The notes below the pieces were generated by a model. That model searched no databases. It worked only from the letters and a program-made list of their open reading frames with translations, and was not told the DNA's origin. Made by a program: the position numbers and the translations under genes. From Blastocatellia bacterium (GTDB lineage Bacteria; Acidobacteriota; Blastocatellia; UBA7656; JADIYM01), in the NCBI GenBank assembly GCA_021463145.1, contig JAJTWZ010000013.1:5864-69863 (forward strand): DNA of 64,000 nucleotides, written 5' to 3'. Positions 21,619 through 26,988 of this stretch are shown piece after piece; within the stretch, counting starts at the first letter, position 1; each line of letters starts with the position of its first letter.

Positions 21619-22536
21619 ATGCATCGAATTCTTCGCCTTGCTGCCCTCTTCATCGCCACTTCACTGCTCGCGACCATCGGGCTCGCTCAGCAACCGGCAT
21701 CCGAACACAATCCCGCTAACTCCGCGCCCGAGGTCAGATTCGCCGTCATCGGAGACCAGGGTACCGGACTGGACCCTCAACTCGAGGTTGCCCGGCAGAT
21801 GGTCGCCGAACACGATCGCTCGCCTTTTTCGTTCGTGCTCACGCTTGGCGACAACCTTTACGGAGGTAACTGGGAGAAGCGTCACAAACTCGTCTTCGAA
21901 GCGCCCTACAAGCCGCTTCTCGACCGTGGCGTCGTCTTCTATGCGACTCTCGGGAATCACGACGTGAAGAGCACCGCGGAACAGATGAGGTATCCGCTTT
22001 TCAACATGAACGGAGACTCGAAGTACTCGGTCAAACCGGCTGGCGAACTCGTCGAGTTTTTCACGTTCGACTCGACGCCGCTCTCCGAGCGCAAGGACGC
22101 GTCACAACTCCAGTGGCTGGACGAGAAGCTTTCGCAGTCAAAGGCCGACTGGAAGATCCTCTTCTGTCATCATCCGCCGTACTCGCCCGGAAAGCGGCAC
22201 GGAGACGACAAGATTCTCGTCGACAAACTCGTGCCCATTCTCAGGAAGAACGGCGTTCGTATCGTCATGACGGGTCACGAGCACTTCTTCGCCGCCCTGA
22301 AGCCGATCGACGGCATCAACTACATCATCTCCGGATCCGCCGGGAAGATTCACAAGGGCGGACTGAACCCGAAAGACGCCAGACTCGAGTTCGGGGACGA
22401 TACGAACCATCACTTCCTTTCGGTGAAATTGACTGCGGAGACATTCGAATACTCAGCAATCGCTGGCTCCGGGGCCGTGATTTTCCGGGGCACCATTCCG
22501 CGAACTCAATCGGCGGCCGCGGGCGGAACACGCTGA
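21619..22536 (+). CDS. Exported calcineurin-like metallophosphoesterase
   Basis: Signal peptide plus the metallophosphoesterase motifs AVIGDQG, LGDNLY, GNHD, CHHPPYS and GHEHFF. Confidence 0.8.
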   Translation: MHRILRLAALFIATSLLATIGLAQQPASEHNPANSAPEVRFAVIGDQGTGLDPQLEVARQMVAEHDRSPFSFVLTLGDNLYGGNWEKRHKLVFEAPYKPLLDRGVVFYATLGNHDVKSTAEQMRYPLFNMNGDSKYSVKPAGELVEFFTFDSTPLSERKDASQLQWLDEKLSQSKADWKILFCHHPPYSPGKRHGDDKILVDKLVPILRKNGVRIVMTGHEHFFAALKPIDGINYIISGSAGKIHKGGLNPKDARLEFGDDTNHHFLSVKLTAETFEYSAIAGSGAVIFRGTIPRTQSAAAGGTR

Positions 22537-25328
22537 TAGGCAGCATCTGCAGGCCGGTACGAGCGATGGAGCCATAGAGGCCGGCGCAGTTCGCCCTGCG
22601 CCGGTACCGCTTTCGCCATCCATTCGCGGTAGACGGCCTCGGAGAGCCTGAGATCGACGTAGATCTCTCCTTCAAGCACTCCCGGGGCCGGCTCGATGCG
22701 CACCCGCTGATGCCAACAGTGCTGACCGCTGACTGGATCGGGATGAACCGGGAACGTCAGATTCTGATGAACGCCCGTATCGCCCCACCAGATGCGCTTC
22801 GAATCCGCATCGTGACTGTCGAAAGCATCTGCGCCGCCGAGTTTCGTCACCTTGCGCGTGCCGCCGGGCCCTTCATCGATCCGGACGAGCGATGCCCCCC
22901 ACTTGTCGTTGCCCGGAGCGTCCGGACTCGCGTTGTCGCGCCGCCATCGACCCATGTGGTGCGAGCACGCCACAATTCCCGGCCGGATTCCCTCGGTCAC
23001 CCACGCCTTCAGCACGAAATATCCGATGTCGGTCGAGACCTTCACCAGGTCGCCCGTTTTCAGGCCGAAGCGTTTAGCGTCGAGCGGGTTCAACCAGAGC
23101 GGATTCGTATGCGCGATCTCGACGAGCCATTTTGCGTTGTTCGACCGCGTGTGGATCATCACGGGAAGCCGGAACGTCGGAATCAGCACGAACTCGTTCC
23201 GGCCCGGTTGAATTACCGAGTGGTGCACGTGGCTGCGAATGTAGGTCGGCGCTGCGAACTGCGGCCAGCCCCATTCGGCAAGCGTCGCCGAATAGATTTC
23301 GAGCCTGCGTGAAGGTGTTGGGAAGCCGACGACGGCTTCTCCGTCCACCTCGAGCCCGATCGCCCGGCCTGATGCGCTCCGGACGATGGAGGTCTGAGGA
23401 TCGATGGTCGAACCCGCCAGATCGGTCGCGGACACAGGGCGGCCGTGCTGCTGCGCCTGGTAGACGTCGCGCGTGACCTCGAAAACTCCATACCGCCGCA
23501 TGTAACCGAGTGGATCGAGACCTTCCTCGGCGGCCTTTTCAGGCAATCCCGGCACGGAATTCTCGAACATCCACCGGTAGTACTCGTCGATGTCGATCCG
23601 TTCGCCTTCGCGATACGGCGATTCGAAGTACTTGCGGATTCCCAGCGACCCGTCGGGATCGATTCTCCACGACAGTTCGTTCCAGAACTCGCCGTCGTCC
23701 CAGACCTCGCCCGGGTTGGCGTCCCGCGAATCGGTGGACGGAAGGCCGAGGCGCTCGCGCGCGACGCGAAGGACCGGCTGGCGCAGTCCAACCCACGTGC
23801 CAGCGTGCGTCTCCTGGCTCTGGTTGTCGTGCCGTTCGGGACCGTGTCCGAGCGGCAGCACGTAGTCCGCCCACCAGGCCGTTTCGCTCCAGGTAGGAGT
23901 AAGCGCGACATGACAACCGACTTTCGACTCGTCGCGAAGCACCTCGATCCATGTGAAGCCGTCCGGGTTCGTCCAGACCGGGTTGTAGACCCGCGTGAAG
24001 TACACGTCGAGTTTGTGCCCGCGTTCGCGCATGAGATGCGGCGTCAGAAAGCTCATCTCGTGGTGCGCGAGAGGAAAGTCTTCCGGCCAGGTGAGCGTGT
24101 TCCAGACGTTCTGGGGCGGCGGCTTCTTGAACGGCTCCGGCGTGAACTTGTGGAAGACGTTCGGCGATACCCCGCCGACGCTTCCGACGCTTCCCGTAAG
24201 GACGTTGAGAAAGAAAAGCGCCCTGGCAACCATCCACCCGCCTTCGTTACCGGCCGCGGCGGATCTCCAGACGTGCGTCGACAATGCCGTGCCGGCATTG
24301 GCAACGTGTTCGGCGACGGTGCGAATCGTCTCGGCGTCGACACGACTTTCGGCTTCGGCGAACTCGGGCGTGTACTCCGCGTATGCCTCGCGCAGCGCCT
24401 CGAGGAACGAGTCGAAGGTTACTGGCAGATCAGGGCGAACCGCAGCCAGGTATTCCTTCCAATTCACCCACTGCCGGAGGAACTCACGGTCGATCCGGCC
24501 GGTGTCGAGAAGGATTTTCGCTATCGCCAGTAGTATTGCCGCTTCCGAGCCGGGCCAGGGCGACAACCAATGATCCGCCGATGACGCGGTGTTCGAGAGT
24601 CGCACGTCAAGTACGACGAGCTTGGCTCCTTTCTGCTTGCCCTCGACGATCCGCTGGGCGTGCGGATTGAAGTAGTGGCCCGTTTCGAGATGCGACGAGA
24701 TCAGCAGGATGCAGCGCGCGTTCGCGAAGTCGGCCGATGGCCGATCGTCGCCCATCCAGAATGCATACCCCGTTCGCGCAGCCGACGAGCAGACGTTCGT
24801 GTGACTGTTGTGGCCATCGATTCCCCAGGACTGGATGACGCGCGGCATGTACCCGTCCTCGCCGGGCCGGCCGACGTGATACATCACTTCGTTGTGGCGG
24901 TTTTCCTGTATCGCCCTCCGAATACGGCCGGCAATGTCGTCGAGTGCTTCGTCCCACGAGACCTGAGTCCATCTTCCTTCACCTCTGGCACCCGCGCGCT
25001 TCAGGGGATGGTAGATGCGATCCGGGGACTTCAGCTGGTTGATGGTCGCGGGTCCCTTGGCGCAATTGCGTCCGCGGCTGCCCGGGTGAACCGGATTCCC
25101 CTCGAACTTCCGGATCTCGAGAGTGTCCTTGTCCACGTAGGCCAGAAGGCCGCACGCCGCTTCGCAGTTGAAGCAGAGCGTGGGCACGAGCATGTAGCGC
25201 TTTTCGATGCGGCGCGGCCACGACTTCGAGTCGTATTCCACCCAGTCGTCCCACCTGTCGGGAGTGGGGTATGTCGCGTTCGGCCCCGTCGCGGCCCTAA
25301 CGAATGGTTTCGAGCTTTCTGAGCTCAT
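22506..25328 (-). CDS. Molybdopterin (bis-MGD) oxidoreductase catalytic subunit, no Tat signal
   Basis: FS0 cluster motif CFNCEAACG...(29)...C (Cys52/55/59/89) and the candidate Mo-ligand region HTNVCSSAART. 940 aa. The N-terminus lacks a twin-arginine signal with a hydrophobic core. Confidence 0.85.
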   Translation of the reverse strand: MSSESSKPFVRAATGPNATYPTPDRWDDWVEYDSKSWPRRIEKRYMLVPTLCFNCEAACGLLAYVDKDTLEIRKFEGNPVHPGSRGRNCAKGPATINQLKSPDRIYHPLKRAGARGEGRWTQVSWDEALDDIAGRIRRAIQENRHNEVMYHVGRPGEDGYMPRVIQSWGIDGHNSHTNVCSSAARTGYAFWMGDDRPSADFANARCILLISSHLETGHYFNPHAQRIVEGKQKGAKLVVLDVRLSNTASSADHWLSPWPGSEAAILLAIAKILLDTGRIDREFLRQWVNWKEYLAAVRPDLPVTFDSFLEALREAYAEYTPEFAEAESRVDAETIRTVAEHVANAGTALSTHVWRSAAAGNEGGWMVARALFFLNVLTGSVGSVGGVSPNVFHKFTPEPFKKPPPQNVWNTLTWPEDFPLAHHEMSFLTPHLMRERGHKLDVYFTRVYNPVWTNPDGFTWIEVLRDESKVGCHVALTPTWSETAWWADYVLPLGHGPERHDNQSQETHAGTWVGLRQPVLRVARERLGLPSTDSRDANPGEVWDDGEFWNELSWRIDPDGSLGIRKYFESPYREGERIDIDEYYRWMFENSVPGLPEKAAEEGLDPLGYMRRYGVFEVTRDVYQAQQHGRPVSATDLAGSTIDPQTSIVRSASGRAIGLEVDGEAVVGFPTPSRRLEIYSATLAEWGWPQFAAPTYIRSHVHHSVIQPGRNEFVLIPTFRLPVMIHTRSNNAKWLVEIAHTNPLWLNPLDAKRFGLKTGDLVKVSTDIGYFVLKAWVTEGIRPGIVACSHHMGRWRRDNASPDAPGNDKWGASLVRIDEGPGGTRKVTKLGGADAFDSHDADSKRIWWGDTGVHQNLTFPVHPDPVSGQHCWHQRVRIEPAPGVLEGEIYVDLRLSEAVYREWMAKAVPAQGELRRPLWLHRSYRPADAAYQRVPPAAAD

Positions 25329-25385
25329 CTGACTCCTATGATTCGGGAAACTGAACGCCAGGTATCTATAACAAATGCCGATGCT

Positions 25386-26924
25386 TCAGCTGAGCGGCAC
25401 CGACTGTCCGGCAAACACCCACAAGTACTCCCATACGTAAAGACCCACGAGCGCAATCGCCGCCGCAAGGGCCCACGCGATACCCGACGATCCAACAAGC
25501 AGGAGCGCCAGGGGCACGATCACTCCGGCGACGACGACACCCACCCAGAACTCGGACGCATACTTTCCACGCAGGACGGTCTGGGTCGCGCGCGCGACGT
25601 GTGACGACCGGTGGGGCATGAAAAGCTCGGCGGCGATAAAGACAGCGTGAACCAGCAGGGAAAGGAAGAAGGTATTCCCAAGCCAGCCGATGTCTCCGGC
25701 CGATGCCACGCCGGAACCCGAACCATCGAAGGCCGCGACGACCATTGCAAGCGCCGCACTGCCTGCAAGCACCGCCTGCACGATCAGATGAGGCGCTGCC
25801 AGCGGCGTCGACCAGAGCTCGCGCCCGGTTGCCTGCGCGAGCAAGAAGGCGGTGTAGCAGGCCGCAAGCGAAGCCGCTACGATCATCGGCCAGCTCATCC
25901 ACCAGAGCACCGAATCGGGAAGCCACGGCGCGGCAACTCCCGCGACGCCCCAGATCGCCGCGAGCACCCCGAATGCCGTGAGAATCACGGCGCCGCGCAC
26001 GAGCCACGACCTCCACTGAGGGCGGGTGAGAATCGTGTAGAACTTCTTCGGATGCTCGAGGTCTATGACGAGCAGAATCAGCGTCACGATCAGAAATAGA
26101 ATCGCCAGGATCGGCGCCGCGAGCCGAACGATTGTCGAGCCAGTAAACTGTCCGGCAAGAAGCGCGAGGGCCGCCACGAGCAACGCTCCGGCCGAAAGCG
26201 ACTTCGTCCACATGTACAGCGCTACGTCGACGCCCCACGGGATCACTCGGGCAGTGTCGTACGCGAGAAGGGTCGACGCGATGTTGCCGGCGCCCCGGCC
26301 GACCGTCTCGTCGTCTCGCTGCGAAGCCCACATGAATATCCCGCCGTCGGGTCTCTCGGCCGCTTCCGGACGGAGGGTCACGTGACTTCCGCCGATGTAA
26401 AAGAGTTTCGGATTCGTGCCGAGTTCCGGCTTTCGAACTTGCGCTCCCTCTCGTGCGATTCGTCGAGAGACGACGCTCTCCGGATCGTCGAGGTCGCCGA
26501 TGATGATGGCTTCCTCGGGGCAAACCACTACGCAGGCCGGCTGAAGGTCGAGTTCGAGCCGGTGAGCGCAGAAATGACACTTCGCAGCCGAATGCGTCTC
26601 CGGATCGATATAGATTGCGTCGTAGGGACAGGCCGCCATGCACGCACGGCAGCCGATACACGCTTCCTGGTCGAACTCCACGAGAAGGTCCGGGCGCTGG
26701 TACATCGCAGCCGTCGGACAGATGTAGACGCACGGAGGGAACTCGCACTGATTGCAGCGAGTCACCTGGAAGTGCCGGCGCACGTTCGGAAAGACGCCGG
26801 TCTCGACGTACTTGACGCGTGTACGATCGACGCCTATCGGCACTTCGTTCTCGGACTTGCACGCGGTGGAGCAGGCGTGGCAGCCGATGCATCGAGTGTT
26901 GTCGATGATCTTCGCGAGTTTCAT
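25386..26924 (-). CDS. Fusion of a four-cluster 4Fe-4S ferredoxin (PsrB/DmsB-like) and an NrfD/PsrC-like membrane subunit
   Basis: The N-terminal ~190 aa carry CIGCHACSTAC, CNQCEFPPC, CIGCRACMAACP and CHFC...C..VCP. The remainder is polytopic, with repeated hydrophobic helices up to the C-terminus. Confidence 0.8.
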   Translation of the reverse strand: MKLAKIIDNTRCIGCHACSTACKSENEVPIGVDRTRVKYVETGVFPNVRRHFQVTRCNQCEFPPCVYICPTAAMYQRPDLLVEFDQEACIGCRACMAACPYDAIYIDPETHSAAKCHFCAHRLELDLQPACVVVCPEEAIIIGDLDDPESVVSRRIAREGAQVRKPELGTNPKLFYIGGSHVTLRPEAAERPDGGIFMWASQRDDETVGRGAGNIASTLLAYDTARVIPWGVDVALYMWTKSLSAGALLVAALALLAGQFTGSTIVRLAAPILAILFLIVTLILLVIDLEHPKKFYTILTRPQWRSWLVRGAVILTAFGVLAAIWGVAGVAAPWLPDSVLWWMSWPMIVAASLAACYTAFLLAQATGRELWSTPLAAPHLIVQAVLAGSAALAMVVAAFDGSGSGVASAGDIGWLGNTFFLSLLVHAVFIAAELFMPHRSSHVARATQTVLRGKYASEFWVGVVVAGVIVPLALLLVGSSGIAWALAAAIALVGLYVWEYLWVFAGQSVPLS

Positions 26925-26988
26925 ATGGGGAGGACGGGGTCGCGACTGGCGCAGATAATCACATTCGTTCGGCTGTTGTCACCTGCGA

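Follow-up and report, generated by a model that had tools for sequence, protein, structure and literature searches.

The window analysed here, a stretch of 64,000 nucleotides from a Blastocatellia bacterium, carries two adjacent genes on its reverse strand (Table 1). The upstream gene encodes a fusion of a ferredoxin subunit (B) with a membrane anchor (C), and the downstream gene encodes a catalytic subunit (A). The spacer between them is 57 nt long (25329-25385). An earlier reading, made from the letters alone, had claimed a 512-aa ferredoxin-NrfD fusion followed 57 nt on by a 940-aa FS0-bearing catalytic subunit, and the open reading frames are exactly as claimed. Both are maximal, each opening at the first start codon past an upstream stop, so a hidden leader is impossible on either protein. 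The A subunit is ∼60% identical across phyla, which rules out chance ORFs.

Upstream of the pair lies mazG, and a gap of 64 nt separates its stop codon from the start codon of BC; a convergent metallophosphoesterase gene follows downstream. None of these neighbours in the window is sulfur-related. The promoter-like site in the gap is weak evidence (1 found against 0.5 expected from shuffles) that transcription of BC-A may not depend on mazG.

Table 1. Features of the BC-A locus. Positions are those of the window.
Feature	Positions	Strand	Description
BC fusion gene, 512 aa	25386..26924	(-)	4x[4Fe-4S] ferredoxin (PsrB/NrfC/TtrB-like) + 8-TM NrfD/PsrC-type anchor
Catalytic A subunit gene, 940 aa	22506..25328	(-)	Mo/W-bisPGD (DMSO reductase) superfamily, without Tat signal
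B (ferredoxin) domain, residues 1 to ∼185	26370..26924	(-)	16 invariant Cys in four groups; no signal peptide
C (NrfD/PsrC-type anchor) domain, residues 227-508	25401..26246	(-)	Eight TM helices
FS0 [4Fe-4S] domain of A, residues 47-97	25038..25190	(-)	C52-x2-C55-x3-C59...C89
Cys180 codon, predicted Mo ligand, motif SHTNVCSSAAR	24789..24791	(-)	Alignment + conservation
AGGAG ribosome-binding site	25333..25337	(-)	5 nt 5′ of A-gene ATG, inside spacer
Promoter-like site GTGACA, 16 nt spacer, TG-GATTAT	26955..26982	(-)	Between mazG stop and BC start

The BC protein matched two Pfam families, Fer4_11 (residues 52-144) and NrfD (residues 227-508), the latter scoring 93 bits where the cut-off is 25.8. 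Its cysteines fall into the groups C12/15/18/22, C57/60/65/69, C89/92/95/99 and C116/119/131/135, and all 16 are invariant in 40 homologues. The first group begins at residue 12, which leaves no space for a signal peptide. The NCBIfam models for TtrB, NrfC and ArrB cover the B domain over the model length minus the leaders, and a Foldseek alignment with PsrB (2vpw_B) gave 47% identity.

The anchor belongs to the NrfD/PsrC family, whose eight-helix fold is made of two four-helix bundles and lacks a haem-binding motif; a hydropathy scan predicted eight TM helices. In the AF2 model of BC the membrane domain has a pLDDT of ∼90; the ferredoxin half (∼30) is not resolved, and the membrane domain alone was used. 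Foldseek matched it to ActC and to PsrC (2vpw_C), with a TM-score on the target of 0.70 for the latter. By analogy with PsrBC, the ferredoxin domain would dock on the anchor. Residues D288, H291, R301, Q303, R368, E433, H438, H442 and E499 of the anchor are invariant, and the side of the ferredoxin domain holds nearly all its invariant polar residues, as well as its Lys and Arg. A survey of BC homologues returned thousands of full-length fusions, typically at ∼50% identity.

The A subunit has the Pfam domains Molybdop_Fe4S4 (47-97), Molybdopterin and Molydop_binding, all above cut-offs, which together with a conserved ligand residue place it in the Mo/W-bisPGD (DMSO reductase) superfamily. The FS0 cysteines C52, C55, C59 and C89 are 100% conserved in 61 homologues, as is C180. 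Ahead of FS0 stands a hydrophilic N-terminal element, also conserved, with W26, W29, E31 and W37. C180 aligns with the region of the Mo-ligand Cys in ArrA 6cz7 (SHSSVCAEAHK) and in PsrA 2vpw. Some "A" ORFs of 1100-1475 aa from the ORF caller looked like BC-A triple fusions. By BLAST the extensions have no similarity to BC, which marks them as alternative-frame artefacts of high-GC DNA.

Compared with PsrABC (Thermus thermophilus, PDB 2vpw/2vpz), PhsABC and ArrAB, the pair has the same Mo-bisPGD centre with Cys ligand, FS0, four [4Fe-4S] clusters and electron path; with Psr it also has the 8-TM anchor fold in common. In those enzymes, however, A is Tat-exported and faces the periplasm, and B and C are separate. 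The sequence match to them is confined to the N-terminal 340 residues (E ∼1e-37). NCBIfam equivalog scores of the A subunit are far under the cut-offs (PhsA 204 against 694, ArrA 122 against 1600, TtrA 104 against 1750) and A has no Tat leader, so the pair is not a member of the Psr, Phs, Arr or Ttr enzymes by either measure. General databases name the family "molybdopterin-dependent oxidoreductase". In IMG its members are called "anaerobic selenocysteine-containing dehydrogenase" and not SoeA.

To determine the orientation of the complex, we combined export signals with the charge distribution of the anchor. Neither BC nor A of the window has a Tat or Sec signal. A genuine twin-arginine leader was found in 0 of 121 A homologues; "RRYML" matches in five of them were rejected as Tat leaders, because they sit right on the FS0 motif. 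The sequence-only reading had claimed that A lacks a twin-arginine signal, and this is borne out by the maximal ORF and by the homologues. In the window protein, the anchor loops have 10 Lys and Arg on the ferredoxin side and 1 on the opposite side. The family means are 9.66 and 2.22, with an excess on the ferredoxin side in 124/124 homologues. These homologue values are loop counts made on the alignment, since naive TM prediction for each homologue gave inconsistent helix counts. By the positive-inside bias, the ferredoxin domain is placed in the cytoplasm.

The closest exported relatives display the opposite bias. They form an unnamed Tat-bearing sister clade (P0248-like; loci L124-L163) from marine and sediment metagenomes, whose gene context was taken from a metagenome scan. 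In a quick ML tree they share one 19-row clade with the window protein (SH-aLRT 99). Their B is 51-53% identical to the B domain and their A ∼48%, and an N-terminal "YPP..W..W.E" element is shared. Unlike in the window, B (212 aa) is not fused to C (∼300 aa), and A (∼1130 aa) carries a genuine twin-arginine leader. NCBIfam rejected an assignment of this clade as TtrA. The charge bias of its anchors is reversed in 30/30 (3.9 Lys and Arg on the ferredoxin side against 8.6), and none of the 30 has the polarity of the window anchor. A Tat-bearing Azoarcus relative is also reversed, with 2 against 10. The NrfD-type anchor is thus inverted relative to its exported relatives. From the maximal ORFs, the absence of leaders, the charge bias and the reversed sister clade, the prediction that the complex faces the cytoplasm is well supported.

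That the complex is periplasmic after all, whether exported by an unrecognised pathway or as a hitch-hiker with another Tat substrate, is extremely unlikely. Canonical B subunits are often exported leaderless by hitch-hiking on A, and the B proteins of the sister clade also have no RR motifs. In the window, however, A is leaderless too, and the ferredoxin is covalently tied to an anchor whose bias points inside in every homologue and outside in the exported relatives. The proposal of a cytoplasm-facing enzyme on an NrfD-type anchor, made in the sequence-only reading, therefore agrees with our topology analysis, which predicts the ferredoxin domain inside and not outside the membrane. One of its arguments must be dropped. 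It had used the gene order as orientation evidence, but the outward-facing sister clade also has the order B-C-A. For the same reason its premise of an A-B-C order in CISM operons is too general.

At least 586 species genomes from ten or more phyla encode relatives of A at ∼60% identity. Carriers include haloarchaea (Natrinema), Thermomicrobium roseum and Rhodococcus jostii, and further ones are found in Chloroflexota, Gemmatimonadota, Nitrospinota, Actinomycetota and Planctomycetota. The family is present in ∼18% of sampled Acidobacteriota and in nearly half of sampled green sulfur bacteria. The fused layout without signals is therefore nothing new, but the standard one in a family that is very widespread.

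Within the green sulfur bacterial phylum, A was found in 44 of 98 FMO-positive genomes and in 16 of 303 others. The FMO-positive homologues are 58-60% identical to A over the full length and 39-42% to BC, and in them B and C also form one polypeptide. All five green sulfur bacterial loci inspected have the order BC fusion > A > TauE. In the quick ML tree the window A falls in a 13-row Tat-less clade (SH-aLRT 95) together with green sulfur bacteria, Natrinema, T. roseum and R. jostii. The very long branch of a paralogue from the same genome (L082) makes its placement in this tree one to ignore. By identity and tree, the window pair and the two-gene complex of green sulfur bacteria are orthologues.

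A passage of PMC5473276 mentions "2 genes encoding PSRLC3" in green sulfur bacteria, and one of PMC9324843 describes PSRLC3 as cytoplasmic and "inferred to be sulfite oxidase". These passages attribute the name, short for polysulfide-reductase-like complex 3, to Frigaard & Bryant 2008 and Gregersen et al. 2011 (cited in PMC9324843, PMC5473276). Soe-type genes are likewise reported in purple and green sulfur bacteria in a summary of Dahl 2013 (PMC8232776). From the FMO co-occurrence, the two-gene layout and PMC5473276, we infer that the green sulfur bacterial BC-A genes are the published PSRLC3. The window pair resembles PSRLC3 in its layout, a BC fusion with an A after it that has no Tat signal and belongs to the same clade, and in its predicted cytoplasmic orientation and predicted sulfite oxidation. 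It differs in its context: in green sulfur bacteria TauE and a DUF1634 gene follow, whereas the window pair stands alone between mazG and the phosphoesterase gene. The host there is an anoxygenic phototroph and here an aerobic-type heterotrophic acidobacterium. The catalytic subunit thus belongs to a clade that already has a name and for which orientation and substrate have been predicted, but our literature search found no report of an enzyme assay or biochemical characterisation for any PSRLC3-type family member.

To our knowledge, SoeABC is the only cytoplasmic sulfite dehydrogenase with genetic and biochemical support. It is the sulfite:quinone oxidoreductase of Allochromatium vinosum and Aquifex aeolicus (Dahl 2013 and Boughanemi 2020, via a passage of PMC8076601). 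In the same passage the enzyme consists of a Mo-bisPGD subunit that has FS0 but no Tat signal, a ferredoxin with four clusters, and an NrfD-like anchor; the anchor is predicted to be inverted and to have its quinone site on the N side. By this description (PMC8076601), SoeABC is like the window pair in its Tat-less A with FS0, its inverted anchor and its peripheral subunits on the N side, and its proposed role, the removal of sulfite made in the cytoplasm, is also the one proposed here. SoeABC is encoded by three separate genes in the order soeA-soeB-soeC, whereas here B and C are fused and stand ahead of A. A search for a SoeA identity gave no NCBIfam model match and generic names in ESM Atlas and clusters. 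Candidate SoeA plasmid matches in Variovorax and Mesorhizobium turned out to be unrelated enzymes.

To ask what the family acts on, we compared the neighbourhoods of 80 loci. Sulfur-linked neighbours were present in 29 and absent from 51. They comprised MBL/persulfide-dioxygenase-rhodanese proteins (at least 11), TauE/SafE (6), TusA (6), DsrE (5), cysteine dioxygenase (5), CsoR-type regulators (4) and rhodanese (4). On pRHL3 of R. jostii RHA1, where the pair is RHA1_RS43840 and RHA1_RS43835, the order is DsrE-TusA-BC-A-Mrp/NBP35, amid MBL hydrolases and ArsR regulators, and in T. roseum a CsoR-family regulator lies immediately upstream of the pair. Away from the pair, the genome of the window also encodes a homologue of cysteine dioxygenase and a single TauE. 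No recurrent formate, nitrogen or arsenic genes were seen among the neighbours of the 80 loci. T. roseum, R. jostii and Natrinema are aerobes, which fits a dehydrogenase feeding the quinone pool. By gene neighbourhood and literature inference, the neighbourhoods across phyla point to sulfite:quinone oxidoreduction as the most likely reaction. The substrate, which the sequence-only reading had left unknown, is narrowed by these neighbourhoods, which point to sulfite.

The opposite direction of catalysis, a cytoplasm-facing quinol-driven reduction of polysulfide or persulfide, thiosulfate or tetrathionate, is unlikely. The best NCBIfam and PDB matches of A (PhsA, PsrA and ArrA) are all reductases, and the closest Tat-bearing relatives resemble respiratory reductases with a TorD-type chaperone. 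The PhsA, ArrA and TtrA scores are nevertheless far under the equivalog cut-offs, and reduction of thiosulfate or polysulfide in the cytoplasm would release sulfide within the cell. Rhodanese, DsrE and TusA neighbours are compatible with a persulfide or thiosulfate substrate as well, but what recurs beside the pair are enzymes that produce sulfite (persulfide dioxygenase and cysteine dioxygenase) and a sulfite/sulfonate-type exporter. The presence of the family in obligate aerobes also speaks against a reductase.

Even less probable is a cytoplasmic dehydrogenase or reductase for a substrate without sulfur, such as formate, arsenite/arsenate, selenate or nitrate. Some NCBI records name homologues "formate dehydrogenase". 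In one planctomycete a NapA-like subunit with an FeS-NrfD fusion is reported beside narK and nirBD (PMC6995999), which indicates that BC fusions serve other chemistry as well. Against this, A scores low with the Fdh, Nas, Nap and Arr models, its Mo ligand is a Cys in a Psr/Arr-type motif, and genes for formate, nitrogen or arsenic do not recur in the 80 loci.

We therefore favour, at a probability of about 60%, the prediction that the pair encodes a PSRLC3-type complex iron-sulfur molybdoenzyme that faces the cytoplasm and oxidises sulfite to sulfate. Cytoplasmic sulfite would be oxidised at the Cys180-ligated Mo-bisPGD centre. It would probably come from cysteine dioxygenase, from persulfide dioxygenase/rhodanese or from DsrE/TusA-linked sulfur oxidation. 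Two electrons would travel by way of FS0 and then the four [4Fe-4S] clusters in the ferredoxin part of the fusion to the NrfD-type anchor, which is predicted by homology to bind quinone. The quinone is probably menaquinone in Acidobacteria, and the aerobic chain would reoxidise the quinol. Because protons would be released from the substrate and taken up by the quinone on the same side, the enzyme is probably not electrogenic by itself unless the NrfD domain conducts protons. In this heterotroph the predicted role is sulfite detoxification with recovery of the electrons.

A more tentative view, which we think doubtful, is that the family described here, fused and facing inward, and its Tat-bearing sister, unfused and facing outward, are a natural pair of closely related enzymes within which the NrfD-type anchor has been turned over in the membrane. 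The true substrate may also be another cytoplasmic sulfur species. If the two clades were to diverge in the direction of their reaction or in how protons are coupled as well, comparing them would directly test how NrfD anchors set their orientation and whether they move protons.

Few unnamed molybdoenzymes are as widespread and as conserved as this family. The value of the window lies in better annotation rather than in discovery, and the function bears on thousands of genomes. Should the family prove to act as a sulfite:quinone oxidoreductase, it would give soils and sediments a major pathway, for the most part unannotated, for detoxifying sulfite and oxidising sulfur.

The gene pair in the window is real and intact. 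BC encodes a fusion of a ferredoxin (B) to an NrfD/PsrC-type anchor (C), and A encodes the catalytic subunit. The two ORFs are separated by 57 nt, with AGGAG located 5 nt before the A-gene ATG. Because each ORF begins at the first start codon past an in-frame stop, a longer, leader-bearing form of either protein is ruled out. In BC, Pfam placed a Fer4_11 dicluster region at residues 52–144 and NrfD at residues 227–508 (93 bits). The first 180 residues match the NCBIfam TtrB, NrfC, ArrB and DsrO models from just past the models' own leaders. BC has 16 Cys in four groups, invariant among 40 homologues, and eight TM helices by hydropathy scan. A carries all three Pfam domains of Mo/W-bisPGD enzymes. 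Its FS0 residues C52, C55, C59 and C89 are 100% conserved in 61 homologues, as is Cys180, which aligns with the ligand-Cys region of ArrA (6cz7) and PsrA (2vpw). The sequence-only reading of the ORFs, spacer, fusion, Cys groups, FS0 motif and Tat-less A was thus correct in every detail. A 508-aa ORF in another frame spans nearly the whole BC gene. It was rejected as a gene and is a high-GC artefact; similar alternative-frame ORFs inflated the "A" ORFs of several related loci.

Coordinates of the genes and loci discussed
Feature	Location	Strand	Remark
BC gene, 512 aa	window 25386..26924	minus	ORF
A gene, 940 aa	window 22506..25328	minus	ORF
508-aa ORF	window 25366-26892	minus	other frame, rejected
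Metallophosphoesterase ORF	window 21619-22536	plus	convergent, downstream
31-nt overlap of 3' ends, A gene and metallophosphoesterase	window 22506-22536
Mo-bisPGD-family match, locus L081	G000:C110:28973-30247		own genome
230-aa protein	L018:1441-2133		Blastocatellia
Homologue of 230-aa protein	G000:C79:51687-52271		own genome
Mrp/NBP35-family ATPase	L089:9793-10962		R. jostii pRHL3
Mrp/NBP35-family ATPase	L117:9894-11054		Natrinema halophilum
Sister-clade example A	L135:5001-8402		B and C just upstream; clade loci L124-L163
B-C-A-TorD cluster, L090	pAZKH 59931-67822		Azoarcus sp. KH32C

A mazG-type pyrophosphohydrolase gene on the same strand stops 64 nt upstream of BC, and the gap holds a weak promoter-like site. 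Between the A gene and the metallophosphoesterase ORF, no convincing terminator was seen. Within the window, none of the genes next to the pair relates to sulfur, nitrogen or metals. Elsewhere, the genome encodes a cysteine dioxygenase homologue, one TauE and two SUOX-fold enzymes. The genome has seven Mo-bisPGD-family matches. One of the seven (L081) contains a single in-frame TGA; the gene may be broken, or it may encode a formate-dehydrogenase-type subunit with selenocysteine.

The orientation of the complex was read from the charges of the anchor loops. In the window BC, the loops on the ferredoxin side (TM2-3, TM4-5, TM6-7 and the C-terminus) carry 10 Lys+Arg, compared with 1 in the other loops. 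A set of 124 aligned fused homologues, some of them from green sulfur bacteria, T. roseum and R. jostii, averages 9.66 and 2.22, with the same polarity in 124/124. The bias is reversed (2 vs 10) in an Azoarcus plasmid enzyme with a genuine twin-arginine leader on A. Sister-clade anchors from metagenomes, whose A is Tat-bearing, average 3.9 vs 8.6, and none of the 30 has the window polarity. No real Tat leader was found among 121 A homologues; five "RRYML" pattern matches were rejected because they lie directly on the FS0 motif. Nearly all the invariant polar residues of the anchor (D288, H291, R301, Q303, R368, E433, H438, H442 and E499) map to loops or helix termini on the side of the ferredoxin domain. 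PsrC and ActC have their quinone site on this same side, beside the ferredoxin subunit. The predicted fold of the anchor domain is confident (pLDDT ~90) and matches ActC and PsrC (2vpw_C, TM-score 0.70 on target); the model was poor over its ferredoxin half, which was left out. From the charge bias, its reversal in Tat-bearing relatives, the Tat-less A homologues and the anchor residues and fold, we put the probability that the complex faces the cytoplasm at about 0.9. The same orientation had been proposed from the sequence alone, and both the topology and the Tat predictions bear it out.

The next relatives of A are a few representatives at 44–48% identity, followed by proteins at ~35%. P0248, a 1115-aa representative at 48% identity, carries a true Tat leader and stands for the sister clade. 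Scanning metagenomes with P0248 gave ~40 loci (L124-L165) at ≥49% identity, of which 34 were inspected. Most have a separate B of ~212 aa (51–53% identical to the window B domain), a separate C of ~300 aa (27–30% identical to the window C) and a Tat-bearing A of ~1130 aa, in the order B>C>A as in the window. Assignment of this clade to TtrA was rejected by NCBIfam. Gene order had been taken as pointing to a cytoplasmic enzyme, an argument that falls because the Tat-bearing clade has the opposite anchor bias and the same order. B>C>A goes back to the ancestor of the wider clade and does not indicate which way an enzyme faces. The window family is defined by an A that has lost its leader, a B fused to C and an inverted C. 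Another Tat-bearing B-C-A-TorD cluster, followed by a 370-aa 4Fe-4S protein, occurs on plasmids of Azoarcus (L090) and Sulfurovum mangrovi (L116). Its A is 36–38% identical to the window A; in Sulfurovum the A gene lacks an annotation and its match is split in two.

The family to which the window pair belongs is very widespread and already named, and the pair is an unexceptional member of it. BC and A each have thousands of full-length relatives. With one genome scanned per species, carriers numbered at least 586, in Acidobacteriota, Chloroflexota, Gemmatimonadota, Nitrospinota, Methylomirabilota/Rokubacteria, Binatia, Planctomycetota, Actinomycetota and Verrucomicrobiota. Cultured carriers include Thermomicrobium roseum (megaplasmid), Rhodococcus jostii RHA1 (pRHL3) and several haloarchaea (51–54% identity). 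Within Acidobacteriota, 54 of 301 sampled genomes and 42 of 187 genera carry it (53/300 genomes without G551, which is flagged unpublished and enters no other result). A BC fusion was called directly or closely upstream in 54 of 72 loci with an A gene; in most of the other 18, the upstream flank is missing or the fusion is masked by alternative-frame ORFs. Identity to the window is ~60% regardless of phylum. The sole close relative (86% in A), with the same flanking layout, is a MAG labelled "uncultured Clostridia bacterium" (L001, CAZQBW010000002.1; L010 is noted with it). Since the gene content of L001 looks acidobacterial, its label is probably a mis-assignment.

The family name comes from green sulfur bacteria. 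In the phylum holding locus L051, 60 of 401 sampled genomes have a homologue at ~60% identity. The FMO protein family (PF02327), which marks green sulfur bacteria, is present in 98 of the 401, and the homologue was found in 44/98 FMO-positive vs 16/303 FMO-negative genomes. All five FMO-positive loci inspected read BC fusion, A, a TauE/SafE-family transporter and a small ~140-aa protein, the last of which, scanned in one locus, matches DUF1634 weakly (24.5 bits against a cut-off of 27.5). Their BC is 39–42% identical to that of the window (517–530 aa in four, 600 aa as called in L113), and their A (951–958 aa) is 58–60% identical. This layout matches that of polysulfide-reductase-like complex 3 (PSRLC3), of which a Prosthecochloris genome has "2 genes encoding PSRLC3" (PMC5473276). 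By quick ML phylogeny, the window A groups with sequences of Natrinema, T. roseum, R. jostii and green sulfur bacteria in a Tat-less 13-row clade (SH-aLRT 95). The architecture that the sequence-only reading set apart from known complexes is not new, being that of PSRLC3.

The neighbours of 80 loci were clustered and then searched with named examples. Sulfur-linked neighbours were found in 29/80 loci, and in 23/55 of those ≥12 kb. They are MBL-fold proteins of the persulfide-dioxygenase type, in many cases with a fused rhodanese (at least 11 loci), TauE/SafE (6), TusA (6), DsrE (5), type I cysteine dioxygenase, mostly in Blastocatellia (5), tandem rhodanese (4) and CsoR-family regulators (4). 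In T. roseum a CsoR-family regulator lies directly upstream. R. jostii has DsrE-TusA-BC-A-Mrp/NBP35 amid MBL hydrolases, ArsR regulators and thioredoxin. Between the cysteine dioxygenase gene and BC, Blastocatellia loci L018, L010, L011, L015 and L016 encode a conserved protein of 230 aa that matched nothing in Pfam or NCBIfam; a homologue elsewhere in the window's genome is 29% identical. A NarJ/TorD-like chaperone follows A in 6–12 loci, depending on the method. Chloroflexota loci have it where R. jostii and N. halophilum carry an Mrp/NBP35-family ATPase. In this actinobacterium and this haloarchaeon the ATPase gene overlaps the A stop codon, an arrangement suggesting that the enzyme has its own Fe-S cluster carrier.

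Cytoplasmic sulfite is common to persulfide dioxygenase, cysteine dioxygenase (via cysteine sulfinate) and DsrE/TusA-linked oxidation, and annotations of TauE-family proteins describe them as exporters of sulfite or sulfonate. Since the sulfur-linked neighbours converge on cytoplasmic sulfite, the most economical function is probably sulfite:quinone oxidoreduction, as in SoeABC. With reference to Frigaard & Bryant 2008 and Gregersen 2011, PMC9324843 gives PSRLC3 as "inferred to be sulfite oxidase". A review (PMC8232776) that summarises Dahl et al. 2013 states that purple and green sulfur bacteria both have Soe-type genes. PMC8076601 describes SoeABC as a complex that faces the cytoplasm and has an inverted anchor; the likeness in function and orientation is drawn from such descriptions rather than from sequence. 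IMG gives the family's proteins a COG name instead of SoeA, a hint that the family and SoeA are separate KEGG orthologues. Our literature search found no report of an assay on any family member. The question worth an experiment is the substrate of the family rather than the window locus.
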